A stretch of DNA of 64,000 nt, from positions 7,892-71,891 of the forward strand of contig JAZQRQ010000073.1 of assembly GCA_045629665.1 (NCBI GenBank). The letters run 5' to 3'. The notes below the pieces were generated by a model that saw nothing but the letters and a program-made list of their open reading frames with translations, was not told where the DNA came from and did not search any database. This DNA is from Faecalimonas sp. GTDB taxonomy: Bacteria; Bacillota; Clostridia; Lachnospirales; Lachnospiraceae. Position numbers and translations under genes: made by a program. Shown here piece after piece: positions 44,558 to 60,489 of the stretch (position 1 is its first letter; each line of letters begins with the position of its first letter).

Positions 44558-44570
44558 CATGCTTCTATAT

Positions 44571-45383
44571 CTATTCTATTGTATTTATTGGAGGTGTAAC
44601 GTCTTCTGCCGATTCCTCACTCTTGACTGCGTCACCTTCCACATCACTACTTGCTACTTCTTCTTTCTCATCTTGTGTCTGCGTTGCTGTACTGTCCGGA
44701 GTTTCCGATGAAACGACACTATCGTCTTCAGTTGTTGTCTCTGTCGGAGCTGTGTTATCTTGCATTGGCACAGAATCTTTGGACGCCACCACCTCATTCG
44801 TCGTCAGCATCTCCGACTTTCCTCCAACTCCTACTTCCTGCCCGTCAATGATTATCATTTCTTCCAACTCGCGAATTGGATTACCGCTATATGTTCCCCA
44901 ACATGACACAAATCTCACTCTTGTTTCAGTTGCCACCCGTATTTGAAGGGTTCTTTCCTCAATAGAATCTTCTTGGTCTTTTATCTTTCCAAACTGCTGA
45001 GTATAAACAGATTGACTGTTACCTGCATCATCATATATCAATATCTCACAATAACCAGTAGTCGCATTACCCTTCTTTTTCAATGTAAAATCATAGATAC
45101 CAGGTTGGAGTTTATACGTCTTCTCACTCTCATAGGATGCACTCGATGTTTCTGTTTGCGGTTCAATTTTCTGAACCTCCAAATCAAAATACGCCGCCTG
45201 TATCTGATTCATGTTGGAACTTACATTTGCTGTGAAAAAAGCGTATGCAGAAAAACCCATTGCAGACATACACAGTACGATACACGCAATAGCCACCGTC
45301 AGTCGTGCGAAAAATACACGTTCGCCTATGATGCCTTTGCCTTCTTCCGGTACTTCAAAATACTTCTGATATATTTTTCGCAT
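44571..45383 (-). CDS. SipW-type substrate with acidic low-complexity tail (possibly TapA-like)
   Basis: Hydrophobic segment ending MGFSAYAFFTA (SipW-type A-F-F-T); about 70-aa T/S/E/D-rich C-terminal tail. Confidence 0.6.
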   Translation of the reverse strand: MRKIYQKYFEVPEEGKGIIGERVFFARLTVAIACIVLCMSAMGFSAYAFFTANVSSNMNQIQAAYFDLEVQKIEPQTETSSASYESEKTYKLQPGIYDFTLKKKGNATTGYCEILIYDDAGNSQSVYTQQFGKIKDQEDSIEERTLQIRVATETRVRFVSCWGTYSGNPIRELEEMIIIDGQEVGVGGKSEMLTTNEVVASKDSVPMQDNTAPTETTTEDDSVVSSETPDSTATQTQDEKEEVASSDVEGDAVKSEESAEDVTPPINTIE

Positions 45384-45400
45384 AACCTTCTCCTCCTTTA

Positions 45401-46096
45401 CTAGTCTAGTGTTTCTCTCTGCGAGGCAAATACTGTAATTCCCAAATCTACTCTCGGGATATCATTTCCTCGATAGTTGGACTCATTGCCTACTTCCTCC
45501 GGCATATACAGAATCAAAGCCGCATAATCAATGCTTCCCTCTCCTGCCTCTGCCTCCAGCTGTCCGATACTGGACGAATATGTGTTTAATGGTAACATCT
45601 CCTTAGAAGGAGCCTTCTCGTCATCTAAATCTTCTGTTGCAATCACTCTCGCGACCTCTCGTGTGAGCGACTGCTCATCTCTCTCAATTACCGCACCGAA
45701 CTTCAGATAATTCGGTAAATAAATTGGTTGTCCCGCCTCATTCACTCCCGGCACAAAGTCATTCATGTTAACCGAAAGTTTGTAGTCAAATTCCACTTCA
45801 CCTTCGTTTACAATCTTCAGATAGACCACCTGTGTGAAGCCCGGCTCGTAAAGTGCTTCTTCATCGAAAATCTTTGTCTTCTCATCAACCTTCACCCACT
45901 CATCGTTTCCCTGCACATTCGTAACCTTGTAATACACTTCCAGATCCAGTTCCCCAAAATCAAAAGTATTTACAAGTTCCGGCGTCTCATCCATAAACCA
46001 TGCGATAGAAGTTCCTGTTCCGAGGATGCCCCACAGAAAAAGTAAACAGATACTGAGGACGAACGCGATTTTTGTAAATGTTCTATTCTTTGCCAT
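45401..46096 (-). CDS. TasA/camelysin-like SipW-dependent protein
   Basis: GTGTSIAWFMD signal; LYEPGFTQVVYLKIVNEG, NYLKFG, EVGNESNY core shared with the paralogs. Confidence 0.85.
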   Translation of the reverse strand: MAKNRTFTKIAFVLSICLLFLWGILGTGTSIAWFMDETPELVNTFDFGELDLEVYYKVTNVQGNDEWVKVDEKTKIFDEEALYEPGFTQVVYLKIVNEGEVEFDYKLSVNMNDFVPGVNEAGQPIYLPNYLKFGAVIERDEQSLTREVARVIATEDLDDEKAPSKEMLPLNTYSSSIGQLEAEAGEGSIDYAALILYMPEEVGNESNYRGNDIPRVDLGITVFASQRETLD

Positions 46097-46106
46097 GCTG
46101 TCCCTC

Positions 46107-46745
46107 CTATTCCGTCTCTGCTTTGTCTATATTTCTTCGTTTCCTTACAATCAATACAATCAAAATTAATGCTGCGGAACATCCGATTGATGCAATCCAA
46201 AGCCACTGCTCGGATGTATCACCAGTCTGCGCACCGTCATCATCAATCTCTTCCACCATGAACTCCCAATCCAAATAGCCCACGAGATTCTTAAAATTAT
46301 TGTCAAGGCTCGTTGGAACCTGAAGTCCAACCATAAGCTCTGCCTCACCACCTGATGTGAGTACACCTATCTCTCGCCACTCGGTCAGTTGTGCCGTCTG
46401 GTCTGCCGGTGCTTCAAAAAGTGGCGTATCCGTTACTTTTTCTACATATAAATGCAATTTCGACAAGAAATCTTTCGAATCCTCATGTGCACCAAGCGCA
46501 CGCATGGATATCTTTACACTCTTTTTCGCATTGTTCCTTACAACAATCTTCTGTGTTAGAGTATCTCCCGGCATCACATCCTTGAAGTTCGGAAATAAAT
46601 CTGTCAAAGAATGTTCACTGCCCGGTGCAAAGACAAATTTCCCTGCGTCTCCACTGTATGTTACGTTGCCATCCGCAGCCGAAGCCGTGAAAGTAACTAA
46701 CATCATCATAATCAGTGCGAATACTACTCTTGTTATTTTCTTCAT
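46107..46745 (-). CDS. Cell-wall-anchored protein with sortase-type sorting signal
   Basis: Sec signal (TASA-ADG); VMPGDTLTQKI TasA-like segment; AQTGD, then TM helix, then RKRR. Confidence 0.75.
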   Translation of the reverse strand: MKKITRVVFALIMMMLVTFTASAADGNVTYSGDAGKFVFAPGSEHSLTDLFPNFKDVMPGDTLTQKIVVRNNAKKSVKISMRALGAHEDSKDFLSKLHLYVEKVTDTPLFEAPADQTAQLTEWREIGVLTSGGEAELMVGLQVPTSLDNNFKNLVGYLDWEFMVEEIDDDGAQTGDTSEQWLWIASIGCSAALILIVLIVRKRRNIDKAETE

Positions 46746-46755
46746 CCCGCACCTC

Positions 46756-47319
46756 CTATTCCTGTGGCCAGCCGGATGCAGTAAATGTATCCGTGCCCTC
46801 TATAGGATTATTTTCACTCTGCACTGCATGAGCAATTACAGAGAGAGACAATGTCTTTCCTATATAACTGTTATCTACCTTACTTCCCACTATCTCAACT
46901 TTCGAAAATACATCCGGTGTGGTCTGATTTGGTTCCACAACGCCGGTGTAATAGTACCATCCATCATGGTATTTCCAATTATTTTCATCAATATTCAGTT
47001 TGAAACAATCCTCCGCAGAAAGTTCCCGCGAATCCACTCCATAGACAATCTTCACTCGCAAGTAAAACGGATGTGTACAGATATTTTCCACACTCACTTT
47101 CTTGCTCACAATATCACCCGGAATAATGTAGACACCTTTCTTCGGAAATTCTGTTCCCTGGTCAGTTGTCTCGTGGATGACAAACTGAATATCGCCGGAG
47201 GTCACAACATTGGTAGCCTGACCAACCGAGGAGTAATACGCCTGCGTACTTTGGGTGAAAAATGTAAATGCGATGGCAATATATGCTATGGTAATAAATT
47301 TAAGTCGAAGCTTTCCCAT
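46756..47319 (-). CDS. SipW-dependent TasA-like small subunit
   Basis: TQSTQAYYSS signal; NVVTSGDI, IIPGDIVSKKVSVEN, WYYY, AHAVQ; ATG 47319 after GAAAGGAGG. Confidence 0.8.
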   Translation of the reverse strand: MGKLRLKFITIAYIAIAFTFFTQSTQAYYSSVGQATNVVTSGDIQFVIHETTDQGTEFPKKGVYIIPGDIVSKKVSVENICTHPFYLRVKIVYGVDSRELSAEDCFKLNIDENNWKYHDGWYYYTGVVEPNQTTPDVFSKVEIVGSKVDNSYIGKTLSLSVIAHAVQSENNPIEGTDTFTASGWPQE

Positions 47320-47339
47320 GTGTAACCTCCTTTCATATT

Positions 47340-47406
47340 CAGCAATCAAAAGACACAATGGGCTTGTGGCCTTTGATTGCCGGGGAAATCGATTACCGAT
47401 TTCCCC
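47340..47406. other. Intergenic double stem-loop, copy 1
   Basis: CAGCAATCAAAAG / CCTTTGATTGCCG (47340-47382) abutting GGGGAAATCG / CGATTTCCCC (47382-47406). Confidence 0.8.
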
Positions 47407-47434
47407 TTATGCATTATTTTAAACTAACTGTTTT

Positions 47435-49321
47435 TTAATCTGCTTGCAAACGGAATGTGTTTGTTGTAGCATCCCAATAAGTGCTGTAACCTTCGTTCAT
47501 GCATACTAATTTGGCTTCATCACCTTCGGTATAGGTGTAACCAGATCCAGGTTTGAAGTTAAATGCGCTAAAGTTTGTATCCTCAACGACCACAAACTTA
47601 ATGGTGCCAAATTCAGAGGCAAGGTTAATTGTATTGTGGTTAGTGCCAATATTAAAATTCACAATGCCTGTGATGCCGTCACCACCAACAGTAGGAGTAT
47701 GACCGCCAGCAAGGTAAATGTTGTCAGCAAGTTCGCCGCCGGAAATCGTTAATCTCGGACACCAGCCATAGAAACCGTTGTGATTAGCATTACTCGTACT
47801 CACATTACCGCTGATTTTACCACCGGTCATATTCAAAATGGTATAGTTGGTAAGACGCAAAGCACCGGAATCTGCAGCAGTGTTGTTGCAGATCTCAAAA
47901 TCACCACTAAGATTGATGGTAGAGTAAGTTCCGGTGTAGATACCACCGCCAACACCGCCTGCAGTGTTATTGTTAATCTTACCGCTATTGAGATTGTAAA
48001 CAGAGGTATTTCCGTTTACGCCGTAACCCCAGATAGCACCGCCGTCCGTTGCAGCTATGTTGTTGCAAATTTCGCCACCATTCATAGTAAGATTGCATTT
48101 ACCAACCATACGGATTGCACCTGCAACGCCAGTAGAACGGTTGTTGTTGATTTTCGATCCTTCGTTGATGGTAATATGTCCGCCACCCCAGATTGCACCA
48201 GCATCAGAGCGATTGTTGATAATCCAACCACCATTCATAGTTAGGGTTGCGCCGATTCTTGTGCCGAGGTTAACAGCAAAAGCCCCATCATTATTTTGAA
48301 GCACTGCACCTTCGTTAAGCACAATTTTGGCATTACTCTCAGCCAAAATTAAATCGCCTGTTGCAGTGACACCGGCATTAGTAACATTTTCATCGGAAAG
48401 TGTATTCGCCCAAACAGCACCGCCATCTACGATTGTATCCTCAACAGTTAAAGATGCATTTGCTTTCACCGTAAATACCGTACCAGTGTAACCGCCTGCT
48501 CGGCTAATTGTGTGACCTGCACCGTTAATATTTGTAGCATAATCTACGTTAAAGGTTTCAGCAGTTTCAATGTTTTCAGTCAAAACTATATTTTCTACCT
48601 TGTTTGCAAGAGCAATCTTCAACTCATTTGCGTTGGAAACCGATACAAAATCAAGACTTGCATCCTTATCATACTGATTATCAAAACTATCTTCTTCTGC
48701 AGTAAGCTGAGTTGCAACAAGTTGAACTGCAAAATCAGCACCAATTTCCTTGTTCTGATATGTATTTCCTGCTGTCTCCTGCATCTTAAGAGCAAGTGTC
48801 ACAATCATACTTTCACCAGCCAACAGGTTACCTGTTGCTGTACTGTTATCACTAGCCAAATTAGCAAGAACAGCGCTGAGTGTACCGATTTTATTGCTAT
48901 CAGCAAGGTCTGTTCGCTTTGTAACGGCACTTGCAGGATCCATGTAATACACATCGATTACATCTGCTAATTCGCTAACTGTACCGTTTGCTATAATATT
49001 TAATTTGTACTTAAGAGCAAGTGTGCCTACATTTGCAATTCTAATATGACGAACCTGTGTATAACCTGGTTCCCATAAGTCATAGTCGAAGATTGCTCCT
49101 GTAGATGCATCTGTCCATACTGCATCTGTCGCTGAAGGATCATTTTTTCCTTCCATCCAATCCATTGTCACATCTAATGTTCCTGATTTGATGATATTAC
49201 CTGAGCTTGTAACTTCATCTGTGAACCATGCAAATGTGGTTCCAATGAGCATTGCCATACAAAGTACTAATGACAAAATACTGCTGAACAATGCTTTTTT
49301 TGTTGTTTTTTTGTTTGTCAT
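47435..49321 (-). CDS. TasA-domain protein fused to a beta-helix with GGAI-type repeats
   Basis: MLIGTTFAWFTD signal; LWEPGYTQVRHIRIANVG; repeats GAIWG, AGAIR, GGAIWG, GGGIY. Confidence 0.85.
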   Translation of the reverse strand: MTNKKTTKKALFSSILSLVLCMAMLIGTTFAWFTDEVTSSGNIIKSGTLDVTMDWMEGKNDPSATDAVWTDASTGAIFDYDLWEPGYTQVRHIRIANVGTLALKYKLNIIANGTVSELADVIDVYYMDPASAVTKRTDLADSNKIGTLSAVLANLASDNSTATGNLLAGESMIVTLALKMQETAGNTYQNKEIGADFAVQLVATQLTAEEDSFDNQYDKDASLDFVSVSNANELKIALANKVENIVLTENIETAETFNVDYATNINGAGHTISRAGGYTGTVFTVKANASLTVEDTIVDGGAVWANTLSDENVTNAGVTATGDLILAESNAKIVLNEGAVLQNNDGAFAVNLGTRIGATLTMNGGWIINNRSDAGAIWGGGHITINEGSKINNNRSTGVAGAIRMVGKCNLTMNGGEICNNIAATDGGAIWGYGVNGNTSVYNLNSGKINNNTAGGVGGGIYTGTYSTINLSGDFEICNNTAADSGALRLTNYTILNMTGGKISGNVSTSNANHNGFYGWCPRLTISGGELADNIYLAGGHTPTVGGDGITGIVNFNIGTNHNTINLASEFGTIKFVVVEDTNFSAFNFKPGSGYTYTEGDEAKLVCMNEGYSTYWDATTNTFRLQAD

Positions 49322-49381
49322 TTTTGTTTCTCCTTGTATTCTTATTTTTGTTCACTCCAAAGAGTGAAGGATAATTGTTAA

Positions 49382-52300
49382 TTATTTAAAAAATTTTCCG
49401 TAGCATTCAATCATCGCCACCAATTCTTCTACTGTTAAGTTACCTTTACCAATAGACACTTTCAAGAACTGACCACCTGCCGCATCAAACATCTCTCTTG
49501 ATAATTCTGCGTATTGTGAAAGTTCTTCATATGTGAACAATCCATATGTCTCGATATCACGAGCCATTGCCTCGTAGTCATAAGTCATTGTTTCTGCATC
49601 TACATCAAAGATGTTAAACAATCCACCTACACCGCCTGGCATAGAAAGCATACCATTTACAAAGTAACAAAGGTGTCCGGCTGTAACAGGACTCCATGCA
49701 GTTGTTACTTGGTTTTCCAGTACAACATCCACTAATGCAACTTTCTCTAACTTATCGCCATTTTGTTTCGCAAATGTATGTCCGATATATTGGTCTGCAT
49801 TTCTGTCAAGGTATACATACTTGTTCAGATTGTAATCCCAGAAACCATGTTCTGAAATAACTTTTACCTCTGTACCATCTGAGAAGTAGAGTTTGATTAC
49901 TTCTACCTCTCTTTCCACTTCACTATCTACAAACATAATTGGTGCAAAATCAAATGCACCTGTTTCAAGATTCCAAACCAATAAATCTTCTGTGCCCGTT
50001 AACTCACAAACCTTTTTCAGGGTGCCATCTGCAAGAGTGATAAGAGTATCAGGAGTTACACAGGATGGACATTCATGTTCTGCACGATAAAACTCGATTA
50101 CATAATAGTACGTAGTTCCCTTATTATCTTTATAAGTAAACTGGCAGTATATAGAATTGGCTTTTTGGTCAGAACCTAATGCACCACTTGTCCATCCATA
50201 TAAGCTCTTATATGTTCCTGAGGTAATTGCACCCTCACTACCACTCTTTCCCGATCCAGAAGACCATCCCCCTCCACCGGATGGTTTATCTGTGGTTAAA
50301 ATAGTTAGATTTGTCGGTTTGGTTGTCGATTCTGGAGAAACGATTGTGGTTGCAATATCTGCTGTTCCTCCCTCTGCATAATCCTCTATCTTTATACCCA
50401 AGAACACTGGATACAACCAGTTGAAATCTGAAGAATTATCTTTAAAATCAACATACACTCTTGGACAATTAACTGTTATTCCATCAATTGTAGTACTTGT
50501 AACATTTGTTCCTGTTGAAGAAGGCATAATGTAAAGATTTCCACTGTTAGATGATACTGTCTTAACATCAGTAATAGTAGTGGCTGCCGTTTTACTTATA
50601 GAACTATATCCATAGAATGTGAATTTTGCATCCTTTGCCGTAGCTTCAACAACATAAACTGCTATTTCTATACTCTTCTCATATTTAATCTCAAAACTAA
50701 CAACTTCACCTTTGTCATTTAATTTAAAATTATACGGGTCTGTATATGTATACACTGCTTGATATGTTCCCGCTTTATTAAAGGTAATTGTCTTTCCAGT
50801 ATAATCTATTCCATCAATTATCACGGTATAAGGCAATTGGTTTCCAGTTTTAGTTACTGAAAGAATGTTCGGATCATATACCTTGTTTTTACCTTGATCA
50901 AATGAAATCTCTAGTTGTTTCGTATCACTATTGTAATAACAATGTTCATTTGAATCTGATGAAGGTGCCACATAATTTTGCTCTGCTTCGTGGTCAAATT
51001 TTACATTAGGTAAAATACTATATTGTTCGCTAGGAGAAAATGTTTTAGGTGGCATTGAAACACTAGTAGGTACTGCAGTATAAACATATCCCCTGTATGA
51101 CATAATAGAAGCATCTTTTCCTGTATATCCCTTTAGTGTATCGATATTATCTTTTCCTATTCCCTCAGTTATAGATAATATACAAGGATTAATCCATGTT
51201 ACACCATCAGAATCTGTATATTGCAAATTCTTGTAAGTTGTATTAAACATAGCTGAACGAAGCTGTTCCGCTGTACTATCTTTAAAGGTTGTTTTATTTG
51301 AAATACAATTATACTGTGTTAGTAAAGGATTTCCGTTTGCGTCCGTCTTGACATGCAATTTGGCTGCAAGATTGCATTCATAGAATACAATGCCTAATCC
51401 AACAACTCCCTTATCATTTGATGTCGATTTTCCATCCGCTGTCGACTGATTAATTGTTATCACGTTATCTAGTGTAATACTACCACCTCGAATATCTAGG
51501 TTGGCAAAAATTCCACCCTCAAGGGTAGTATTAATAATCTGCAAATCTCCATCTTGTGCACGTACAGCCGAAGAACCATTCGACACGTAACTATTCGCGA
51601 TAATCGAATTACCATTTGTCAGAATTGTAGGATAATTATATTCGGATTTAGCTGTTGCACCGTATTTCGTATATACTTCTCCAATGATTTGAATATTATC
51701 TAAAATAGCATTTTTCAACGCAACAGCATAATTACCTCCGATATAACCGTTCACGGTATCTCCATCCTTACCAGCAGTAACATCAAATTTAAATCCATTT
51801 CCGTACAAAGTCGCATTTTCGAGCCAGAAATTACCGTTTGAAGACATAGTAATGTCATTGAGCAGAACAGAATTCCTATTCTTTAACGGAGAGTTACCAC
51901 CGCTAGCAGTAGTTACATTGTAGGCATTCACAACTTCCAAATACAATATTGTAGGTTGACAGAAATCGTAATCTTGGATAGTAACTTTAACAACACCTGT
52001 TCCAGAGAATTCAATTGTACCTTGCATCCAATCTGTAGTATTAGGTTTGAATGTTCCTGATACATTTGAATTTTCGTCAACTTTATCAATGCTTACATAT
52101 ACACCTGAGTCACTAATTTCACGCGCTAGTTTCTTGCCATTCTCATCAGATTTAGGTTTTTCATCTTCGTCATATAATTCAGTATTTGCTTGGAATAACG
52201 TTTCTAGATATACAGTATTTTGGTTACCAACGCGATATAAATAATCATTAGTAAATTTACTTACAAATTTCTCAGCAGATTCGTTTTGATCACCTTCAAT

Positions 52301-54721
52301 AATACCCAAATCGGTTACAATACCACTATATTCTTTCAATCCAATACTATTTACTCCCCAACTGAAACCAGTAAAGAGTTGATGGAATGGAAGGTATACG
52401 GCTTGCTTATCTTCAGCATCTGTGTGGTTGTGTCCAATACAGGTCGCTTGTTCTTTCCCTTTTGAGATATCAATCTCATCATTCGGAACACGGCTGAACT
52501 GATAATCCTCCGAATATGAAGCCATGGTATTTTCTTCAAACTCACAATAGAAGTAATCATTCCAATCACCAAAATTAACGGTGCACTTCTCTGCTGAAAT
52601 ACCTTTCATATTTGGAATAACTTTTCCTTCTTCATTAGTTGTATTATGGCGAATAGAACCAATTATCATACCTGCATAGCGATATGCATAATATTGATAA
52701 TTTGCACATACGTCATTGTAAACATCAATCTGTGCAGCAACATGACAGTTGTCAAAATAAACCGTATCTCCTGTAGAATCACCATTTTCATCGACATTAC
52801 CACGATACATACCAATCAGACCACCACAAGCAACATCCCAGCTTCCCCACAAAGCCGAAATAATATTAGTATTATCCACAGTAATGTTCTTTAAAGTAAT
52901 AGTTTCTTTTGTTTCATGTTCTCTTCCAGCAATACCAATAATTCCTCCATTACCAGTGTTATATACACGAGGATTACATTGTGTAATTGCAATATTTTCA
53001 AACTTTGAATTCACTGCATATGCTGCAATAACACCTGTAGGTGTAAATTCACCATCAGATTCGAATTTGTCAACAGTCAAGTTCTTAACACTACCATTTA
53101 CAACATAACCGAAAAGTCCCATTGCATCTTTATAGTAATTTGGTGTTCCACTATAACCATCATTATAATCGCCAAACATTTCCCAAGTATTCTGATAGAA
53201 ATTAGAAATAGTATGACCATCACCATCAAAAACACCTTCGAAAGAATATACAGTACTTTCAACATTCGTTTCTACAGTTGTAGGTCGATTACAGTTGTTC
53301 TTACTTACAAATTCTTTGTTATTATTGTATCCAATAGGATAAAAAATTGTCGTTGTTGCACTTCCCTTTTCTTCATCAGACACTACATTACCATGATTCA
53401 AGTTAATATCTGAAAGAAGTTTTACTGTTTTGCCTTCAAAACTATCTCTTGCAATTCCTGCGGCCATACCACCTACGATTTGAGAAAAAGCATGAAGTTG
53501 ATCGGCATTGGCAACAGTCAACTCAGTTTTACTTACATCATACCAATCATAATCAACTTTACCCTGCCAAGCCTTTGAAGTGTCAGCTACCATTGCAACC
53601 TCAGAGAACGAAGTCATTGCAACACTTACTTCTCCTGTAAGCGGATCATATGTAAATGTATTATGTGCAGTAAGTTCAGACGCATCATTAACCAACGTCA
53701 TCTTTGAAGTAGTACCATCTTCGACGTGGAAAAGGTGATAGTTACCCATGTTCATGTATTTAGGTAATACTTCGCCAAGTTCAATTACTATCGGAACTGT
53801 ATTATCTTCAGCCACTCCATCAATATGAACATCAACCGGAATCAACACTTCGTTATTAACTACTGTAATGTCACTTGTTGTATTTTTAAGAGGCGTAACA
53901 GAAAGTGTAAGTTTGTCTGCATCATCTTCCATAGTTACACCAGCCGGAACAAATGCGGAAATACCGTCTCCATTTAAAGTTACGCCATCTGTTGGAACCT
54001 TTCCATTGTCAGGAGTAACATTTACTGACACCTTGCCTGGAGTTAAGATTGTCGGCATTTCTGCTTTTGAATCATAATCCGAACCAAAAGAATCCTGCTC
54101 AAATGGTGCCTGAGTTGCTAATGCCGTAATGGTAAATTGTCCGGCATCCTCATTCTGGTACTCATTTCCGGCGGTAATAATCATATTCATCGCCATGGTC
54201 ACAATAACCTCACCTGACGGATGCAGAGGGCTGGATTGTTCTGCTGCCAACAGGGTACCATCTGCAGTAGCACCACCATTTAATACGTTATTAAGCAAAC
54301 CTATTACCTTTAGGTTCTTCAAATCTGAGCGTTGTTCTACATTTACACCACCCTCAGCAAAGTACACGTTAATAACTTCAGCTAGTTTGCCCACACCATT
54401 CTGAGGCGTGAGAGATAACTTATAGTTAAGAGCAAGTTCACCGGCATTAACCAATTTTATGTACTTAACATCAGTGTATCCCGGCTCCCAATTATCATAG
54501 TTGAATATAGTATTATGTCCGTCTTCCTCAACATTGCGCCATTCGCCACTATTAAGGTCGTCCGTCCAATACATTTCTAAATCCAAGTTTCCAGCTGTAA
54601 TAATATTATTACTACTAGAGATTTTGTCGCTGAACCACGCAAATGTCGTGCCAATGAGCATAGATATGCACAACAGCAAGGCTATTACACTATGGAGCAA
54701 CGAATTTTTAGTCTTCTTCAT
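49382..54721 (-). CDS. 1779-aa TasA-domain adhesin with GLUG/beta-helix region and C-terminal Hedgehog-like Hint domain
   Basis: MLIGTTFAWFSD signal; NWEPGYTDVKYIKLVN; FEGVFDGDGHTISN...GLFGYV (GLUG-type); Hint from C1554 (CVTPDTLITLADG) to YFVNGMLS1693. Confidence 0.88.
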   Translation of the reverse strand: MKKTKNSLLHSVIALLLCISMLIGTTFAWFSDKISSSNNIITAGNLDLEMYWTDDLNSGEWRNVEEDGHNTIFNYDNWEPGYTDVKYIKLVNAGELALNYKLSLTPQNGVGKLAEVINVYFAEGGVNVEQRSDLKNLKVIGLLNNVLNGGATADGTLLAAEQSSPLHPSGEVIVTMAMNMIITAGNEYQNEDAGQFTITALATQAPFEQDSFGSDYDSKAEMPTILTPGKVSVNVTPDNGKVPTDGVTLNGDGISAFVPAGVTMEDDADKLTLSVTPLKNTTSDITVVNNEVLIPVDVHIDGVAEDNTVPIVIELGEVLPKYMNMGNYHLFHVEDGTTSKMTLVNDASELTAHNTFTYDPLTGEVSVAMTSFSEVAMVADTSKAWQGKVDYDWYDVSKTELTVANADQLHAFSQIVGGMAAGIARDSFEGKTVKLLSDINLNHGNVVSDEEKGSATTTIFYPIGYNNNKEFVSKNNCNRPTTVETNVESTVYSFEGVFDGDGHTISNFYQNTWEMFGDYNDGYSGTPNYYKDAMGLFGYVVNGSVKNLTVDKFESDGEFTPTGVIAAYAVNSKFENIAITQCNPRVYNTGNGGIIGIAGREHETKETITLKNITVDNTNIISALWGSWDVACGGLIGMYRGNVDENGDSTGDTVYFDNCHVAAQIDVYNDVCANYQYYAYRYAGMIIGSIRHNTTNEEGKVIPNMKGISAEKCTVNFGDWNDYFYCEFEENTMASYSEDYQFSRVPNDEIDISKGKEQATCIGHNHTDAEDKQAVYLPFHQLFTGFSWGVNSIGLKEYSGIVTDLGIIEGDQNESAEKFVSKFTNDYLYRVGNQNTVYLETLFQANTELYDEDEKPKSDENGKKLAREISDSGVYVSIDKVDENSNVSGTFKPNTTDWMQGTIEFSGTGVVKVTIQDYDFCQPTILYLEVVNAYNVTTASGGNSPLKNRNSVLLNDITMSSNGNFWLENATLYGNGFKFDVTAGKDGDTVNGYIGGNYAVALKNAILDNIQIIGEVYTKYGATAKSEYNYPTILTNGNSIIANSYVSNGSSAVRAQDGDLQIINTTLEGGIFANLDIRGGSITLDNVITINQSTADGKSTSNDKGVVGLGIVFYECNLAAKLHVKTDANGNPLLTQYNCISNKTTFKDSTAEQLRSAMFNTTYKNLQYTDSDGVTWINPCILSITEGIGKDNIDTLKGYTGKDASIMSYRGYVYTAVPTSVSMPPKTFSPSEQYSILPNVKFDHEAEQNYVAPSSDSNEHCYYNSDTKQLEISFDQGKNKVYDPNILSVTKTGNQLPYTVIIDGIDYTGKTITFNKAGTYQAVYTYTDPYNFKLNDKGEVVSFEIKYEKSIEIAVYVVEATAKDAKFTFYGYSSISKTAATTITDVKTVSSNSGNLYIMPSSTGTNVTSTTIDGITVNCPRVYVDFKDNSSDFNWLYPVFLGIKIEDYAEGGTADIATTIVSPESTTKPTNLTILTTDKPSGGGGWSSGSGKSGSEGAITSGTYKSLYGWTSGALGSDQKANSIYCQFTYKDNKGTTYYYVIEFYRAEHECPSCVTPDTLITLADGTLKKVCELTGTEDLLVWNLETGAFDFAPIMFVDSEVEREVEVIKLYFSDGTEVKVISEHGFWDYNLNKYVYLDRNADQYIGHTFAKQNGDKLEKVALVDVVLENQVTTAWSPVTAGHLCYFVNGMLSMPGGVGGLFNIFDVDAETMTYDYEAMARDIETYGLFTYEELSQYAELSREMFDAAGGQFLKVSIGKGNLTVEELVAMIECYGKFFK

Positions 54722-54751
54722 GTCTGTATCCCCCTTTGAATATTGCCATTA

Positions 54752-54822
54752 CAGCAATCAAAAGACACAAAAGATTATTTATGCCCTTTGATTGCCGCCT
54801 ATCCCTAGTAAATAGAGATAGG
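54752..54822. other. Intergenic double stem-loop, copy 2
   Basis: CAGCAATCAAAAG / CCTTTGATTGCCG (54752-54797) abutting CCTATCCCTA / TAGAGATAGG (54798-54822). Confidence 0.8.
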
Positions 54823-54864
54823 TCGGACTTATATCATCTGATTCATCAGATAAATTTTAGTTCA

Positions 54865-56850
54865 CTAAGGTTTAGCTATGTCTTCCCAACCATCGTTAGC
54901 AAGGTATCTGCCAAGTTCACCCTTGAATGTACCGCCAGTGATAGTAACATTCTCTGTGGTAGCCTTTGCATTTCCACCACCGAAAGCAACATCATTATTG
55001 AATGTACCACCGGTGATAGTAACATCCACATTAGCAAAACTCTGTCCATATGAATATGAGTAGATAGATAAACCACCTGTACCATTCAGAACTCCACCGT
55101 TAACAGTCAGATTAACATCAGGAGCATCTGCTGGCTTGTTGCTAGGCAGTTGAATCTGAACAGCACGAGCACCGGTAATGGTTCCGCCGTTGATTGTACA
55201 ATTGATAGCAGCACTGCCAAATGGACACAGACGGATGGCATTCTTCTGGCTTACAACCTTACCACTATTGATAATCAATTCAGCACCGGCAGAGCAGTCG
55301 ATAGCAACACTAGATCCTGAATTAGTTGTATTGATTACAGTTGCACCGTCAATCACAAGTTTCCCGGTATTATTGATAGTGTTGGTGCCATAACCAAAGT
55401 TAGGATCGCCAACGCCTTTGTAAGTAACAGTACCGTTCTTGATTGTAAGTTCGCCCTTGTTAGCAATTGCACTAGATGCAGCTGCAGTTGTGTTCTTAGT
55501 AGTAATGGTGTTGCCATTTAAATCAAGTACAACAGCCTTGTCTGCTGGGACAGTAATGTTTGCTTCACCAAGGTCAACATCAGCATCTAAAATAATGTCT
55601 CCACCTTTTGCAATAGCATCTGCCAATGTAGCAGCATCAGCAACCTTCTTAGCACCGAAGGTGTAGGAATATGTACCGATGGTGATATACTCGCCTGTCT
55701 CCTCATTTGCTGAACCAGAAGTAGCGTTAGGATCTATTGTAGTCTCATAGAGACGCAATTCAACAGTCATAGTCTTTCCTGCCATAGCAGCCTGATCTAC
55801 AGCAAATGCACCACAAGAGAATTCTTTAACAGCAAGGCAGAGTTCTTCATAGTTCATGCTAATACCTGCAAACTCAAGCATACGAACAGGAGTATTAGCA
55901 GCGATATCGCCAACACCATCTAATTCAAATGCGAGCCAATCAGGAGAATATGTATCATACTGACCTGCTAGACCGATAGCAGCATCATCTACATCCTGAT
56001 CAAAGAATGCAACAAAGTCAGCGTGCCAGTAACGGTAAGCGTTCATCTGTGCCTGATCGTAAGTCTCGGTTGTGTTAAACACATAGCCGGTGTCTAATGT
56101 AACAGTATTGCCGCCAAGGGTTCCAACTGTAGGCATTTTTGCCAAAACAGTAGTACGTGCTGCCGGAGCACCGCCAAACTTTGCATCTGCGTCATATTGA
56201 TTGTTGAAAGAGTCACTCTCAGAAGTGTACTGAGTAGCCATAAGGTTGATTCCTAGATCAATCTGAGGTGCAACCTCTCCTGTACGGTAATTTGCTTCAT
56301 TACCAACTGTTTCAGGCATATAAACTACTAATGCAACATACTGTTCAACTGCACCTGCTTCGATGCTACCAGCCTTAGTATAACCAGTAGATAAAATAGC
56401 AGAATTAGTCACTGCGGCACGTGCAGCTGCACGGTCTGCATAAGGTGTGGAAACACCTTCGATAGCACCGAACTCAATGTAATCAGAAAGACGCAGTGCT
56501 TCACCTGCAACATTAATAGATTCGACCTCATTTACAATGTTAATACCCAACTGATATTTCAACGCAAGAGTTCCAAGATTAGAAACCTTTAAGTAAACAA
56601 CTTCTGTGTGCCCAGGTTCCCAAAGAGTATTTTCCTCAAACACATTAGTATTAGCGGTAACTTTTTCCCAGCTATCGCCATTGTAGTATTCCAACTCAAC
56701 ATCAAGATTACCGGACTTGATGATATTGTTAGTGCTGGAAACACTATCCGTAAACCAAGCGAATGTCGTTCCAATAAGCATTGCCATGCACAGAACTAGT
56801 GACAACACGCTTGATAAAAGTGCACGTTTTGTGCTTTTTTTGTTATTCAT
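54865..56850 (-). CDS. TasA-domain protein fused to an uncharacterised domain and a beta-helix
   Basis: MLIGTTFAWFTD signal; LWEPGHTEVVYLKVSNLG; C-terminal xTIxGGTF beta-helix repeats; ATG 56850 after GGAGG. Confidence 0.85.
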   Translation of the reverse strand: MNNKKSTKRALLSSVLSLVLCMAMLIGTTFAWFTDSVSSTNNIIKSGNLDVELEYYNGDSWEKVTANTNVFEENTLWEPGHTEVVYLKVSNLGTLALKYQLGINIVNEVESINVAGEALRLSDYIEFGAIEGVSTPYADRAAARAAVTNSAILSTGYTKAGSIEAGAVEQYVALVVYMPETVGNEANYRTGEVAPQIDLGINLMATQYTSESDSFNNQYDADAKFGGAPAARTTVLAKMPTVGTLGGNTVTLDTGYVFNTTETYDQAQMNAYRYWHADFVAFFDQDVDDAAIGLAGQYDTYSPDWLAFELDGVGDIAANTPVRMLEFAGISMNYEELCLAVKEFSCGAFAVDQAAMAGKTMTVELRLYETTIDPNATSGSANEETGEYITIGTYSYTFGAKKVADAATLADAIAKGGDIILDADVDLGEANITVPADKAVVLDLNGNTITTKNTTAAASSAIANKGELTIKNGTVTYKGVGDPNFGYGTNTINNTGKLVIDGATVINTTNSGSSVAIDCSAGAELIINSGKVVSQKNAIRLCPFGSAAINCTINGGTITGARAVQIQLPSNKPADAPDVNLTVNGGVLNGTGGLSIYSYSYGQSFANVDVTITGGTFNNDVAFGGGNAKATTENVTITGGTFKGELGRYLANDGWEDIAKP

Positions 56851-56884
56851 TTTCATTTCCTCCAATTAAATCTGTCTTAACTAA

Positions 56885-57583
56885 CTAGTCTTCATCAACA
56901 AATGCTGTTCCGGCTGTCCAGTTAACATAAGCAAACGCCTCGACTGCATTATCGCCTGTATTATCTCTTTGTAATGCATCAGCTGACACAACAATATCAA
57001 ACTCATTATTGATTTCAGCCATTTCCTGTTGAGTGAACTCTGTAGGAATATTTACGTTTGTAAATAAGACCTCATCACTACCTGCCGGAAGTTCTCTGTT
57101 AAGATAGAGATACCATGTAGCCTTGTCATCTTGAACAGCCACTTCATCTTCTACCAGAAGCCATTTGCTAGTTATATCTGTCCCAACATTAGCAGCCAAG
57201 CCATAGCTAGAACCCTCAAATAACTCCGTGAAAACAAGAGAGCCACCTGCTGCTTTCCAGCCACCTGCCTTATTCAATGTTACTGCCACACGAATCCATT
57301 GTGTATAATCACCTGTATTTGTGATTGTAGGATCCTTAGCGATATCATCACCTGGGATTACATCATAATATGTAACACCTGTAGTTGTTTCATTACCTTC
57401 AAGGTCTGTTTCTGATACTTTTACTGAAAATTCAGGATCGGTATCATTTTCACTTGTAGCAACCTTGAATGAGTTGGTAACGCTCTTGGTATCATTAAAC
57501 CAAGCCAATGTTCCCAATGATAAAATTGCAACCAAAGAAACAGCTAACGATGCAGTCAACACTTTTTTCTTATTCATTTTCAT
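56885..57583 (-). CDS. SipW-dependent TasA-like protein, candidate major fibre subunit
   Basis: ILSLGTLAWFNDT signal; VIPGDDIAKDPTITNTG; ADALQ near the C-terminus; single domain, first substrate after the peptidases. Confidence 0.85.
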   Translation of the reverse strand: MKMNKKKVLTASLAVSLVAILSLGTLAWFNDTKSVTNSFKVATSENDTDPEFSVKVSETDLEGNETTTGVTYYDVIPGDDIAKDPTITNTGDYTQWIRVAVTLNKAGGWKAAGGSLVFTELFEGSSYGLAANVGTDITSKWLLVEDEVAVQDDKATWYLYLNRELPAGSDEVLFTNVNIPTEFTQQEMAEINNEFDIVVSADALQRDNTGDNAVEAFAYVNWTAGTAFVDED

Positions 57584-57669
57584 CTCTTTGTCCTCCTTTC
57601 CCTCATGATATTTATTTCAAAATCATGCTTACCGGAATTCCATGAGCAAACACGATTCTAAAACCGAAT

Positions 57670-58368
57670 TTATTGTGATTCCTGATTACTTGCATTCACC
57701 CTTAGATAACAGGTCTCGCACAATTGCCCCACGCCTGTGACATAGTACTTTCTTGCATCTGCCGGCAGGTCCCTTAGCACACCTGTATCATCTCCACAGA
57801 GTATGCATTGTTCTGTTTCCAACCTGACTTTTTCCTCTGCGCCCTTCTCTTCGACGAGCTCATCCTCTTCTTTCTTCTTTCCAAAGAAATCCGGCAAGAA
57901 GACAATTAGAATCAATATGAACCCAACGCCCACCGTGATATACATGCCCGGTGGATTCTGAACAAAATCAGACACATACCCAAGCAGTGGAATGCTAAAC
58001 CGCGGCACTCCGATAACATTGTTAAAATGCACCGGCGAAGCGTCTGCTGTATCGTTTGCATCTCCCTTTGTATAGAAGTGTTGATTTTCTTCATCCACCT
58101 CCACAACTCTATGTGTGGCCACTACCAGATTCTCGTTTAATACAAATGTAATCGGTGTTCCCACCTCTATCTCATATGGATTCACATCTTCTACATAGAT
58201 GAGGTCTCCTACACTGTAAGTCGGTTCCATACTGCCGGATATAACATTGAACACCTGATACCCCAGTAATCTTGAGCCCATTAGGAACACGGCACATAGC
58301 ACAAAAAGCCCTACTAAAAATGTAGAGCTTACATTCCAAATTTTCTTAAACACATTATTGCGTTGCAT
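57670..58368 (-). CDS. sipW: Signal peptidase I, SipW/ER-type, with C-terminal zinc ribbon
   Basis: VISGSMEP (Ser), ATHRV (His), TKGDAN; tail CILCG...QLCETC. Confidence 0.9.
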   Translation of the reverse strand: MQRNNVFKKIWNVSSTFLVGLFVLCAVFLMGSRLLGYQVFNVISGSMEPTYSVGDLIYVEDVNPYEIEVGTPITFVLNENLVVATHRVVEVDEENQHFYTKGDANDTADASPVHFNNVIGVPRFSIPLLGYVSDFVQNPPGMYITVGVGFILILIVFLPDFFGKKKEEDELVEEKGAEEKVRLETEQCILCGDDTGVLRDLPADARKYYVTGVGQLCETCYLRVNASNQESQ

Positions 58369-58392
58369 AGTATCGCCTCCCCTTACCAAGTC

Positions 58393-58620
58393 TTAATAAC
58401 GCACAAATGGTAGAATAGATAACCAAAGCTTGCGCCTTTTTTGAATCCAATATTTCTTTTCTCTTCCACGTGTTCTGTGTATTTCCCCTGTGAGATGTTG
58501 TAGTTCTCTGCGAAAATCAAGCAGCCATTTTATTAAACCAACGAAAACTACAAGCAAGAGAAATCCAATGCAAATAGCGAGTAGCAGATAAATGCCAAAG
58601 TCGCTTCCAGACTGATTCAT
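58393..58620 (-). CDS. Small membrane protein
   Basis: One long TM helix and a basic tail; TAATG overlap with the upstream sipW. Confidence 0.7.
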   Translation of the reverse strand: MNQSGSDFGIYLLLAICIGFLLLVVFVGLIKWLLDFRRELQHLTGEIHRTRGREKKYWIQKRRKLWLSILPFVRY

Positions 58621-59336
58621 TATTCTTCCTTCTTCTCCGTCTCAACAGAGTTTTTTTGACGGGTAAGTTCTTCTTTCAATGCCAGAAGTTCTTCCATCAT
58701 CCTTGCATTTTCGGCTGCTCCCATTGCAATCTTCGCCCGTTCTTCCTCCATCTCCTGCATTTGCTCCTTCTTATATCTACGGAACAAGCGAAGGCAATTG
58801 AGTCCTTGATAGAGTATCAAGAGCATAAATGGTATGAAAATGCACACGAAATATCCTTGCGTTGTCTTAAGAAAATTGAAGAAGGTTCCAATATTAGGAA
58901 TTGCTTTTTCATATCTTCCCAGAATATAAGGGTAAGTTACGATTGTAGCATCGTCTGTATCCGTGGTTGTACCATAAGTAACGAATCCCGGATTGCCATT
59001 CGCATCCGTTGTCAGGGCACGAATCTTATGGGTGATTGTCTCACCAAAACTCTCTGGATTCTGTGACATGTATGTAATGATGTCATCCTCTTTTAACGTC
59101 GCAGGGTCCACTTGTTTTACCAAAATCAAATCTCCTGCATCAAAATCTGTCTTGCTCATGGAATCTGAGGTTACAACGTAGGCTCTGTATCCAAATAAAC
59201 TTCTATCATTACGGTTAAATGTAGTTACAGAGACTATGGTGAATATCATCATACACACTGCAAGAAGCACTACTGCCCAGACCACTATTGTTTTTACTAT
59301 ATTGAATATTTTCTTTGCATTACTTGGAAGTTTCAT
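58620..59336 (-). CDS. sipW: Signal peptidase I, SipW/ER-type, with C-terminal coiled coil
   Basis: VVTSDSMS (Ser), GDLILVK, ITHKI (His), two TM helices, charged helical tail. Confidence 0.88.
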   Translation of the reverse strand: MKLPSNAKKIFNIVKTIVVWAVVLLAVCMMIFTIVSVTTFNRNDRSLFGYRAYVVTSDSMSKTDFDAGDLILVKQVDPATLKEDDIITYMSQNPESFGETITHKIRALTTDANGNPGFVTYGTTTDTDDATIVTYPYILGRYEKAIPNIGTFFNFLKTTQGYFVCIFIPFMLLILYQGLNCLRLFRRYKKEQMQEMEEERAKIAMGAAENARMMEELLALKEELTRQKNSVETEKKEE

Positions 59337-59351
59337 TTTCTATTATCCTCC

Positions 59352-59379
59352 GTAGAACATAATTCTTATTATGTGGTAA
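59352..59379 (+). repeat. dif-like recombination site A
   Basis: GTAGAACATAA-TTCTTA-TTATGTGGTAA (11-6-11); direct repeat of site B. Confidence 0.8.
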
Positions 59380-59381
59380 AA

Positions 59382-59409
59382 AAACTACATAATTCTTATT
59401 ATGTAGTAA
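59382..59409 (+). repeat. dif-like recombination site B
   Basis: AAACTACATAA-TTCTTA-TTATGTAGTAA. Confidence 0.9.
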
Positions 59410-59633
59410 AAAAGCAAAATAAAATTATATAATTTTTCTCCTTTGAATAATGGTATCATAATACATAATTGTTTTAAAAGCAAGGCTTTTTTGATAATAA
59501 TTTAACAGAATGAAATATACGCACGTCAATAACACCCGCGAGCTGAGTTTTACATAAAATCGCCGGGGGTGTTTTTTTCGCGCTCGAAAAGTCGCGTGGG
59601 GAATGCGTTTTATTATTAGCCCGAAAGCACCTA
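59408..59633. promoter_or_regulatory. Candidate invertible promoter segment, currently pointing into the sipW/TasA operon
   Basis: Between inverted sites B and C; minus-strand TTGCTT (59483-59478), 17 bp, TATGAT (59460-59455); plus-strand hairpin plus T7 at 59531-59578. Confidence 0.75.
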
Positions 59634-59659
59634 ACTACATAATAAGAATTATGTAGTAT
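59632..59659 (-). repeat. dif-like recombination site C (inverted copy of B)
   Basis: TAACTACATAA-TAAGAA-TTATGTAGTAT; the 24-bp core 59634-59657 is the exact reverse complement of 59384-59407. Confidence 0.9.
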
Positions 59660-59667
59660 TTTTTATT

Positions 59668-60489
59668 TCAGACTACTAATCCCAATTGCTCAATCTTTCT
59701 TCTGTGTTCCATTCCTGTTGTCATGATATAGATACGAGTTGTGTCTATACTGCCATGTCCAAGAATATCTGCCAATTTAGCAATATCCTTTTCTATTTTA
59801 TAAAATGTTTTTGCAAATAGCTTGCGTAAATTGTGTGGAAATACTTTTGATGCACTTACACCTGCTTTCTCACATAATTTCTTCATATCTGACCAGATAT
59901 TGCTCCGATTGAGTGGTTTACCGCTCTTTGTCCGAAATATGATTCCCGAACGAATTCCTTGTTGCTTTGCGAATCCAATTAATGTCTTTCTAAGTTTTCC
60001 CGGAAGAAGGATTGTTCGCGTTTTATTTTTACAACACACTACAACCTCTCCGTTCTGAACTGCCTCAACTGTAAAATAAGAAAGTTCCGATACACGTATT
60101 CCTGTCCCGCAGATTGTCTGCAAGATGAAATACAGTCGCGTTTGTTGCCTTGCCGCACTCAGTAGTCGCATGTACTCCATCTTTGTCAATTCCCTCTGTT
60201 CTGCACAATAGATCTGACGCTGTGTTTTCATACTCTTTACTTTGTAATCAGCCCAACCCACATACGATAAAAAACTATTCAACGATGCTAACATGGAGTT
60301 GATGCTTCTTATTGCATATCCACTTTCTATTAGAGACTTTTTGTATTCTATAACTATTTCTTTTGTGACGTCGTTATGTCCTACAAACCTTGAAAACTTC
60401 CTCACATCACGTAGATATTTTTCGACTGTGATGCTACTCTTTTCTTCCTGCCTTAAATACTCCTCAAATTCTAAAATTAGTTTTTCCAT
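59668..60489 (-). CDS. Tyrosine recombinase (Xer/integrase family)
   Basis: Intact catalytic set: GIRVSE (R), KNK (K), PHNLRK (H-x-x-R), LGH, TTRIY (Y); ATG 60489 after GGAGG; stop 8 nt from site C. Confidence 0.95.
   Translation of the reverse strand: MEKLILEFEEYLRQEEKSSITVEKYLRDVRKFSRFVGHNDVTKEIVIEYKKSLIESGYAIRSINSMLASLNSFLSYVGWADYKVKSMKTQRQIYCAEQRELTKMEYMRLLSAARQQTRLYFILQTICGTGIRVSELSYFTVEAVQNGEVVVCCKNKTRTILLPGKLRKTLIGFAKQQGIRSGIIFRTKSGKPLNRSNIWSDMKKLCEKAGVSASKVFPHNLRKLFAKTFYKIEKDIAKLADILGHGSIDTTRIYIMTTGMEHRRKIEQLGLVV

Follow-up and report, generated by a model that had tools for sequence, protein, structure and literature searches.

What kind of surface structure is encoded by a cluster of genes for SipW-type signal peptidases and their presumed substrates, and can its expression be turned on and off by DNA inversion? 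The question is raised by a stretch of 64,000 nucleotides (nt), referred to here as the window, which covers positions 7,892 to 71,891 of contig JAZQRQ010000073.1 from a Faecalimonas sp. genome (assembly GCA_045629665.1) of 1.63 Mb and 97.6% completeness. From position 60489 to position 44533 of the window all genes lie on the minus strand, in the 5' to 3' order recombinase, a 330-nt intergenic region, SipW-1, a 75-amino-acid (aa) protein, SipW-2, and proteins of 232, 666, 1779, 628, 200 (probably 187), 212, 231 and 270 aa, which are named by their lengths below. The 12-gene operon has intergenic gaps of 10 to 143 nt and a single strong terminator at its end. The elements named in a preliminary description of the window were all recovered, on the minus strand and at or near where it had placed them. 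The core order sipW1, orf75, sipW2, 232, cargo, 200, 212, 231, 270 is kept in 12 species belonging to several families; related loci carry L numbers, and the nearest public relative, L001, is a goat-caecum metagenome-assembled genome labelled Tyzzerella sp. RGIG1712. We consider it probable, with some reservation, that the cluster encodes a surface fibre of the TasA/BsaA (donor-strand) type whose subunits are processed by SipW and whose expression is phase-variable. The parts are each of a known kind; their combination is unstudied.

The recombinase and its candidate promoter switch

The upstream end of the cluster contains the following features.

59668 to 60489, minus strand: Xer-like tyrosine recombinase, 273 aa from its ATG, with a PF00589 (Phage_integrase) match at 2e-22 and a SAM-like N-domain
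59634 to 59657: site R, ACTACATAA-TAAGAA-TTATGTAGT on the plus strand, 10 nt past the recombinase stop codon
59408 to 59633: invertible segment of 226 nt between sites R and L1, the window copy being read as the ON orientation
59531 to 59578, plus strand (opposite to the operon): hairpin followed by a run of seven T, -15 kcal/mol by ViennaRNA
59455 to 59483, minus strand: promoter-like TTGCTT-17-TATGAT facing sipW, 47 nt from L1
59384 to 59407: site L1, with spacer TTCTTA on the plus strand and dif-like half-sites
59357 to 59377: site L2, a third site in tandem with L1 and carrying its spacer, immediately 5' of the sipW ribosome-binding site

The open frame of the recombinase extends to a TTG at 60558. 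Its best NCBIfam matches were XerA, XerD and XerC, each below its cut-off, and the FimB/E-type invertase model was matched at an E value of 0.0016 only. The residues R132, H219, R222, H245 and Y254, at the expected catalytic motifs, were invariant in four aligned recombinases. The three sites share the form ACATAA-N6-TTATGT, and the spacer of R is the reverse complement of that of L1 and L2. When read on the operon strand, the recombinase stop codon is followed by 10 nt, ACTACATAA-TTCTTA-TTATGTAGT, the 226 nt, a site with TAAGAA, 6 nt, and the third copy with TAAGAA. Because the half-sites are palindromic, the orientation of each site resides in its 6-nt spacer, and the outer site is inverted relative to the inner ones. 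The core CATAA-N6-TTATG is that of Xer/dif sites, in agreement with the best hidden Markov model (HMM) matches of the recombinase. The ACATAA-N6-TTATGT pattern was found in five copies in the genome, and extended arms with matching spacers were found only in the three copies described here. A single ACATAA-GATAGT-TTATGT site was found at C23:14888, on another contig of the genome. It may be the chromosomal dif, which the switch sites would then closely mimic.

Orientation variants of the segment were found in nature. In L016, which has a recombinase 93% identical to that of the window and the same site, the segment is inverted with 89% identity over 228 nt, corresponding to the product of recombination between R and L1. 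Near-identical but inverted pairs (95 to 99.7%) were also found in other lineages, namely L066 and L080 (99.7%), L044 and L045 (98%), and L070 and L091 (98.6%). The same site layout was present in L002, L004 and L007, which have the same operon and recombinases 58 to 67% identical, with spacers TGACTA, TGGTTA and TTCGCA, respectively, each paired with its own reverse complement. When metagenome contigs were searched with the recombinase alignment, more than 563 relatives were found, from which 74 loci with enough downstream sequence were kept. The 6-nt spacers of the two sites were reverse complements of each other in 63 of these 74 loci, with 28 distinct spacers that differ from locus to locus, and the length of the segment ranged from 203 to 277 nt. 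Since two 6-nt words are exact reverse complements by chance in 1 of 4,096 cases, the covariation is strong. These natural orientation variants and the spacer covariation are as expected from the switching by DNA inversion that the preliminary description had proposed, and on these comparisons inversion of this cassette family is well supported.

A TTGnnn-17-TAnnnT motif lies inside the segment, 33 to 50 nt from one of the sites. It faces the operon in six loci linked to SipW (window, L002, L004, L007, L017 and L018) and the recombinase in five (L016, L019, L021, L023 and L059). Hairpins equivalent to that of the window, with energies of -15 to -20 kcal/mol, were found in the L002 and L017 segments, and ViennaRNA found no comparable hairpin on the ON strand of the window segment. 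In the proposed mechanism, the Xer-like recombinase would flip the 226-nt cassette at dif-like sites with opposed asymmetric spacers. In the ON orientation, as which we read the window copy, the TTGCTT-17-TATGAT promoter would drive the sipW operon. In the OFF orientation transcription from the promoter would enter the recombinase gene in the antisense direction, and the hairpin with its T-run would face the operon and block read-through from the recombinase gene. From the promoter and the opposite-strand terminator we infer that the orientation would control expression of the operon. The third tandem site was found only in switches linked to SipW (window, L004, L007, L017 and L018); it could give a second inversion product with another leader, or act as an accessory binding site.

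The cassette is not confined to SipW operons. SipW genes were found downstream in only about 11 of 84 recombinase loci. The other genes behind the cassette encode surface proteins bearing cohesin, collagen/leucine-rich-repeat or dockerin domains, an Eco57I-type methylase, an O-antigen-ligase-like (Wzy-like) protein, SPFH-domain proteins and Lgt. The cassette is thus generic, judging from its gene neighbours, and would drive many other surface and restriction-modification genes. In Clostridia, inverton group 139 has been tied to an adjacent tyrosine recombinase ('invertase') of group 35 and flips in culture; it has repeats of 14 to 26 nt and an inner segment of about 206 to 228 nt (PMC11892184). 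The present cassette may belong to group 139/35, a likeness drawn from the published description and dimensions. The covariation of the spacers offers a simple rule for spotting this switch family in genomes for which no reads are available.

The recombinase and repeats could instead be the remnant of a mobile element, or serve a resolution function of the Xer/dif type, with no regulatory role for the operon. Such an origin would fit the Xer models as best HMM matches and the resemblance of the sites to dif, as well as the absence of the cassette from the sister strain L001 and its presence beside many unrelated genes. However, the sites are inverted and not direct, they bracket a conserved promoter at a fixed geometry, and both orientations occur in near-identical sequences. 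Moreover, sites with extended arms and matching spacers are restricted to this locus in the genome, the genes downstream in other loci are typical phase-variable targets, and a matching group of invertons and invertases in Clostridia flips in culture (PMC11892184). We regard the absence of a regulatory role as scarcely credible; the mobile-element reading of the recombinase was rejected on the inverted sites, the promoter geometry, the presence of both orientations and the phase-variable type of the targets.

Signal peptidases, leaders and two classes of candidate subunits

The switch is followed by the peptidase genes, and the operon contains three proteins that consist of a candidate subunit without payload.

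58620 to 59336, minus strand: SipW-type signal peptidase 1, 238 aa, TIGR02228 63.8 bits
58393 to 58620, minus strand: small membrane protein of 75 aa without a family match
57670 to 58389, minus strand: SipW-type signal peptidase 2, 239 aa, its C-terminal tail rich in Cys, TIGR02228 95.2 bits
56885 to 57583, minus strand: 232-aa BsaA-like subunit, the proposed shaft subunit, TIGR04088 28.7 bits and TIGR04090 at an E value of 6e-7
46756 to 47319, minus strand: 187-aa BsaA-like paralogue of the 232-aa protein, TIGR04090 at an E value of 5e-8
45401 to 46096, minus strand: 231-aa stand-alone subunit with a predicted TasA fold, from AlphaFold2 (AF2) and Foldseek

Both peptidases were above the cut-off of TIGR02228 (SipW / endoplasmic-reticulum-type signal peptidase I; 51.85 bits). 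Neither reached that of the Bacillus SipW equivalog NF046067 (80 and 89 bits compared to 190; SipW-1 79.9). SipW-1 is conserved in 12 of 12 genome loci, and two distinct SipW paralogues are conserved; an exact-protein look-up of SipW-1 in other assemblies gave no match. The 75-aa protein (42 to 64% identity) sits between the two sipW genes in most loci. The SipW-2 tail, CILCG...CETC, was found only in the window, L001 and L010. In other loci a small zinc-ribbon-like module rich in Cys (Pfam Cys_rich_KTR in L004) has a gene of its own, which lies between the switch and the gene for a TetR-type regulator (L004:6827-7021; L007:7015-7215; in L017 the first open reading frame (ORF) past the switch). 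In the window, the module (57670-57880) appears by eye to be fused to the C-terminus of SipW-2.

Seven proteins (232, 666, 1779, 628, 200, 231 and 270 aa) carry a leader of the form ...A-[WYF]-[FY]. The seven leaders counted in the preliminary description were therefore present, and the G/S-T-x-A part of the motif it gave fits the 231- and 270-aa proteins only loosely. The cut-off of TIGR04088 (SipW-cognate signal, 19 bits) was passed by the 232-aa (28.7 bits), 666-aa (24.2 bits), 628-aa (24.2 bits) and 1779-aa (22.1 bits) proteins. The 231-, 200- and 270-aa proteins had no TIGR04088 match and share the leader by profile homology. The same four proteins passed PF12389 (Peptidase_M73, the TasA/camelysin family) with 25.8 to 31.9 bits compared to a cut-off of 22.5 bits, and no significant PF12389 match was obtained with the 231-, 200-, 212- and 270-aa proteins.

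The 232-aa and 200-aa families are related over their full length in profile comparison (hhalign 98.3%). The most likely start of the 200-aa ORF is the ATG at 47319 behind AGGAGG, which gives 187 aa. TIGR04090, the BsaA family model, was matched at an E value of 1e-3 or lower by 47 of 53 homologues of the 232-aa protein (best 1.3e-9). Among the 53 homologues only 17 columns are invariant, and N37, E58 and K83 are among them. An intermolecular isopeptide bond has been proposed for BsaA, with V33, N35, F37, E56 and K74 (PMC11580942). The 232-aa protein has a V35-x-N37-x-F39 strand, and its spacing of 21 residues between Asn and Glu is that reported for BsaA. In the AF2 monomer model of the 232-aa protein (mean predicted local distance difference test, pLDDT, 85.5), residues 26 to 39, the presumed donor strand, were disordered.

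In the AF2 monomer model of the 231-aa protein (pLDDT 78.7), residues 28 to 36 were disordered. The top Foldseek match of this model was the TasA fibre 8aur_A (E value 1.9e-4, probability 1.00, TM-score 0.39), followed by the archaeal bundling pilus 7ueg and then by chaperone-usher pilins, so that the leading significant matches are all donor-strand fibre subunits. The disordered N-termini in the models of the 232- and 231-aa proteins are compatible with donor-strand exchange and no proof of it. The full length of the 231-aa protein aligned with about 220 N-terminal residues of each of the three cargo proteins (666, 1779 and 628 aa; hhalign 100%), whose N-domains are for this reason taken to have the TasA fold. 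Between the BsaA-like and the TasA-like class, profile homology (95%) is limited to roughly the first 100 residues. Taken together, the TIGR04088 and PF12389 matches, the profile homology, the BsaA-family matches and the TasA-fibre match of the 231-aa model agree with the SipW/TasA-BsaA-type subunits of the preliminary description, and the fibre chemistry is supported by this homology.

The two classes could also make separate homopolymers or remain monomers, with the N-domain serving as a stalk or pro-domain, in which case the operon would encode a battery of alternative surface proteins that share their processing enzymes. The limited relationship between the two classes would agree with this, the two conserved SipW paralogues could serve one class each, and BsaB has been reported to form dimers only (PMC11580942). 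In contrast, both classes co-occur strictly and in the same gene order across distant taxa, and heteropolymers have been raised for operons with multiple paralogues (PMC11580942). We find a battery of separate proteins quite improbable, and a fibre in which both classes co-assemble is preferred.

Payload-bearing proteins and the anchor candidate

The remaining features of the operon are the three large proteins, the candidate anchor, an accessory protein and the terminator.

54865 to 56865, minus strand: 666-aa subunit with a TasA-fold N-domain (about residues 1 to 235, by homology) and a payload; PF12389 25.8 bits, TIGR04088
49382 to 54721, minus strand: 1779-aa subunit with a TasA-fold N-domain (by homology), a payload of about 1,300 aa and a Hint-like C-terminus; PF12389 29.3 bits, TIGR04088
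about 49643 to 50062 (C-terminal region 49385 to 50104), minus strand: putative Hint/Hedgehog-like domain of the 1779-aa protein, from weak convergent matches
47435 to 49321, minus strand: 628-aa subunit with a TasA-fold N-domain (by homology) and a Gly/Asn-rich repeat payload; PF12389 31.9 bits, TIGR04088
46107 to 46745, minus strand: 212-aa protein, the proposed wall anchor, with an ordinary AxA signal, an NVTYSG N-terminus and a sortase-type tail
44571 to 45383, minus strand: 270-aa protein, proposed to be accessory, which has a leader of the SipW type and an acidic tail rich in Ser and Thr
44533 to 44560, minus strand: intrinsic terminator closing the operon, a 12-pair stem with six G-C pairs followed by a T-run

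A boundary motif, DSFxxxYD, is conserved past the N-domain in all three large proteins. Six payload fragments searched against Pfam at E values up to 1 gave nothing credible. The large cargo adhesins of the preliminary description are thus upheld as three proteins with a TasA-fold N-domain and an unrelated C-terminal payload; 'adhesin' itself is a guess, since the payloads have no family match. This label, together with 'beta-helix' and 'Pmp-like repeat', was dropped because all three were only impressions from sequence periodicity.

The number of cargo genes varied from 0 to 5 per locus in the 12 species, with products of 396 to 1,803 aa. L001 lacks the 628-aa gene and has another sequence in the centre of the 1779-aa gene. 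The G+C content is 0.35 to 0.37 across the 1779-aa gene (49000-54000) compared to 0.41 to 0.43 in its neighbours. This low G+C content, together with a centre that has no counterpart in L001, suggests a recent replacement of the payload. The architecture of the 1779-aa protein was also found in L001, L005 and L012, and its last 230 or so residues are 82% identical in L001 and L012. A hairpin element, GGCAATCAAAGG...TGTGTCTTTTGATTGCTG, was observed 3' of the 666- and 628-aa genes (54752-54800 and 47340-47385), with a second hairpin in front of it and without a T-run. The element may act in the processing or stability of RNA, or mark a junction at which cargo genes are exchanged.

The Hint models were matched below threshold (intein-containing radical SAM 2e-4, intein_Nterm 2.5e-3, PF01079 Hint 0.037 and PF14890 0.11), and a PDB profile search with this region gave Hedgehog (6td6/1at0) at an E value of about 0.05, and DnaB mini-inteins. 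C1554 aligned with Cys1 of Hedgehog and the EH of a VISEH motif with position 72 (block-B His), and both are invariant in four orthologues. The Hint-like domain lacks the terminal His-Asn, so that splicing is not expected, and it has a conserved extension of about 70 aa. A CPSC 'redox trap' before Cys1 was considered as a conserved feature and rejected, as the orthologues read LKNC or DEGC.

The tail of the 212-aa protein consists of GAQTGD, a hydrophobic stretch of 20 residues, and RKRR. The orthologues have PPQTGD, APQTGD or SPNTGD, and the hydrophobic stretch and the R/K tail are kept in nine of them, so the one sortase-type anchor noted in the preliminary description has a putative sorting signal that is conserved. 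These motifs of the (P)PQTGD type are similar to (S/P)PxTG, which is found in clostridial substrates of sortase B. The Pfam anchor models gave no match to the 212-aa protein. No sortase is encoded in the window, and three PF04203 matches above the cut-off were found on other contigs. The mature N-terminus of the protein (NVTYSG...F.F) aligned with the donor-strand region of the 200-aa paralogue, and the profile link between the 212-aa and 200-aa families was 73%; the comparison with the 231-aa family profile was negative. In every locus long enough to include it, the 212-aa gene occupies the same place within the operon. Homologues of the protein form 3,092 clusters in public data, almost all of them unnamed, and the locus as a whole is patchy, being found in 9 of 400 sampled Clostridia species and 6 of 217 genera.

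The evidence on anchoring bears on an alternative in which the operon makes a shed biofilm matrix like that of TasA or BsaA and not an anchored pilus, the cargo proteins acting independently, secreted or at the surface, with no more than the SipW export leader and the N-domain in common, and the 212-aa protein being a separate wall protein; the switch would still apply. The characterised relatives TasA and BsaA are matrix fibres (PMC9674648, PMC11580942), and the BsaA oligomers of C. perfringens have been reported to be membrane-anchored, not peptidoglycan-anchored (PMC11580942). A separate wall protein would also agree with the weak profile link between the 212-aa and 232-aa families (E value 3e-4, probability 39%) and with the absence of a local sortase. 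A shed matrix is harder to reconcile with the fixed operon position of the 212-aa gene, with the alignment of its product's N-terminus to a donor-strand region, and with cargo N-domains that appear to be complete TasA-fold domains, more than leaders. We judge a shed matrix unlikely and retain the wall-anchored fibre.

The 270-aa protein is homologous to the N-domains only in its leader and first strand (hhalign 97.5%, residues 26 to 74), and the family libraries gave no match to it.

The proposed fibre and its relation to known systems

In the structure that we propose, the two SipW peptidases would cleave the leaders of the seven proteins, and the 232-aa and 187-aa proteins would form the shaft, the N-terminal strand of each subunit being inserted into the next. 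The join between subunits may be locked by an Asn-Glu-Lys isopeptide like that suggested for BsaA. The TasA-fold units, namely the 231-aa protein and the N-terminal domains of the three cargo proteins (666, 1779 and 628 aa), would slot into this fibre as well and present variable payloads. Attachment to the wall would come from the 212-aa protein, by way of a sortase encoded outside the window. Polymerisation, co-assembly, the roles of the subunits (the 232-aa protein as the major one) and the function of the payloads are what we infer from the parts.

Besides the points on anchoring given above, several observations weigh against this reading. In the window the sorting motif is AQTGD rather than LPxTG. 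The sister strain L001, whose 232-aa protein is 99.6% identical to that of the window, keeps the operon and lacks the recombinase and the switch, which indicates that the switch is dispensable. Window positions 60659 to 59316 are replaced there (L001:3996-8252) by two ABC (ATP-binding cassette) exporters and a divergent XRE-type helix-turn-helix regulator, directly upstream of sipW1. In B. subtilis sinR adjoins tapA-sipW-tasA, and the XRE-type regulator of L001 recalls that arrangement. The comparison of recombinase-sipW-TasA loci called for in the preliminary description thus gave the same layout of switch and operon in L002, L004 and L007, and an operon without recombinase in L001. The PF12389 matches are confined to the leader and first strands (the first 50 to 90 of the 196 positions in the model). 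The TIGR04090 scores (29.4 bits for the 232-aa and 33 bits for the 200-aa protein) are below the NCBI cut-off of 60 bits, which makes these proteins distant relatives of BsaA and not members by the NCBI rule. TasA was not among the top 50 Foldseek matches of the 232-aa model, the best of which were cohesin and carbohydrate-binding-module (CBM) jellyrolls at E values of about 0.01, and PDB sequence and profile searches with the 232-aa and 231-aa families gave no useful match. The TasA fold expected from the preliminary description was therefore predicted for the class of the 231-aa protein and the N-domains, with TasA as top match, and not for the proposed major subunit, which matched cohesin/CBM jellyrolls weakly. 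For the 232-aa protein homology to the BsaA family and a predicted jellyroll-type sandwich are put forward, and no TasA fold is claimed. Lastly, the payloads matched no family or solved structure in Pfam, NCBIfam and the PDB.

The closest systems in chemistry are the C. perfringens bsaA and B. subtilis tasA operons; in proposed logic it is the WxL pilus, and in control the fimS-type and group-139 invertons. Like the locus described here, the C. perfringens sipW-bsaA-bsaB-bsaC operon (PMC7395162, PMC11580942) encodes a SipW peptidase alongside paralogues related to TasA. The 232- and 200-aa proteins give matches to the BsaA model, below its curated cut-off, and the 232-aa protein has a V-x-N-x-F strand and conserved Asn, Glu and Lys that resemble those of the proposed isopeptide 'exchange and lock'. 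In contrast, the present locus has two SipW genes, two subunit classes, three subunits with payloads of 400 to 1,550 aa and a dedicated subunit with a putative sortase signal, and it has neither the von Willebrand factor A protein BsaC nor a two-component regulator; the C. perfringens operon is regulated by temperature, whereas control here would be by DNA inversion. Operons with multiple TasA/BsaA paralogues alongside LPxTG proteins, signal peptidases and sortases have been described, and heteropolymers were raised for them (PMC11580942).

The B. subtilis tapA-sipW-tasA operon (PDB 8aur; PMC9674648) shares SipW-dependent leaders and a jellyroll subunit, which is the best structural match of the 231-aa model, and Pfam Peptidase_M73 matches the leader-proximal part of the proteins described here. 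The likeness between TapA and the 270-aa protein is one of layout only (SipW-type leader, short folded part, disordered tail). In the present locus, however, no protein matches the TapA family. The locus also has far more subunits, some of them fused to payloads, and a sortase-type anchor, and it has an invertible promoter in place of SinR, the divergent XRE-type regulator being found at that position in L001.

The E. faecalis Elr/WxL pilus (bioRxiv 10.64898/2026.10.17.759780) is alike in proposed logic, being a Gram-positive donor-strand fibre with modular tip adhesins (an invariant attachment module and a variable payload), an LPxTG base and a housekeeping sortase. That pilus is built from WxL proteins with a DUF916 chaperone, whereas unrelated TasA/BsaA proteins occur with SipW here; it is reported to be confined to Bacilli and no invertible promoter is described for it, whereas the present locus is from Clostridia. 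With E. coli fimS (FimB/FimE), C. difficile RecV and group 139/35 (PMC11892184) the locus shares a promoter segment between inverted repeats, an adjacent tyrosine recombinase and, as proposed here, the control of a surface structure. It differs from these switches in its Xer-like recombinase, dif-like sites, locus-specific 6-nt spacer and, in the subset linked to SipW, the third tandem site.

A literature search found no paper on cargo-bearing TasA domains or on an invertible promoter for such an operon. The novelty suggested in the preliminary description accordingly holds for the combination, and not for operons with multiple paralogues (PMC11580942) or for an inverton group tied to a recombinase (PMC11892184), both of which were known. 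A more specific proposal, which we hold tentatively and as somewhat unlikely in its entirety, is a modular display fibre undescribed in Clostridia. It would have an isopeptide-locked BsaA-like shaft, a sortase-tied base and TasA-fold plugs that load strain-specific payloads. The Hedgehog-type Hint domain at the end of the payload of about 1,300 aa could detach itself by cleavage and link the new C-terminus of the payload covalently to another molecule, the Xer-derived invertase would use the 6-nt spacer as a private address, and each SipW would serve one subunit class.

In Bacillus and C. perfringens the known role of TasA and BsaA fibres is that of a simple matrix scaffold, and the locus suggests that in uncultured gut Clostridia the same chemistry may provide a wall-fixed platform for large, fast-changing payloads. 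It may be the Clostridia counterpart of the recently described enterococcal WxL donor-strand pilus. It also offers a testable case of surface variation, in which flipping of the operon between ON and OFF would be combined with swaps of cargo genes between strains as close as the window and L001.

Directly downstream of the operon terminator lies a HicA/HicB toxin-antitoxin pair (43672-44330), which is unrelated to the fibre operon. Its promoter (44330-44301) has the perfect consensus TTGACA-18-TATAAT, and a second hicAB copy is present on genome contig C52.

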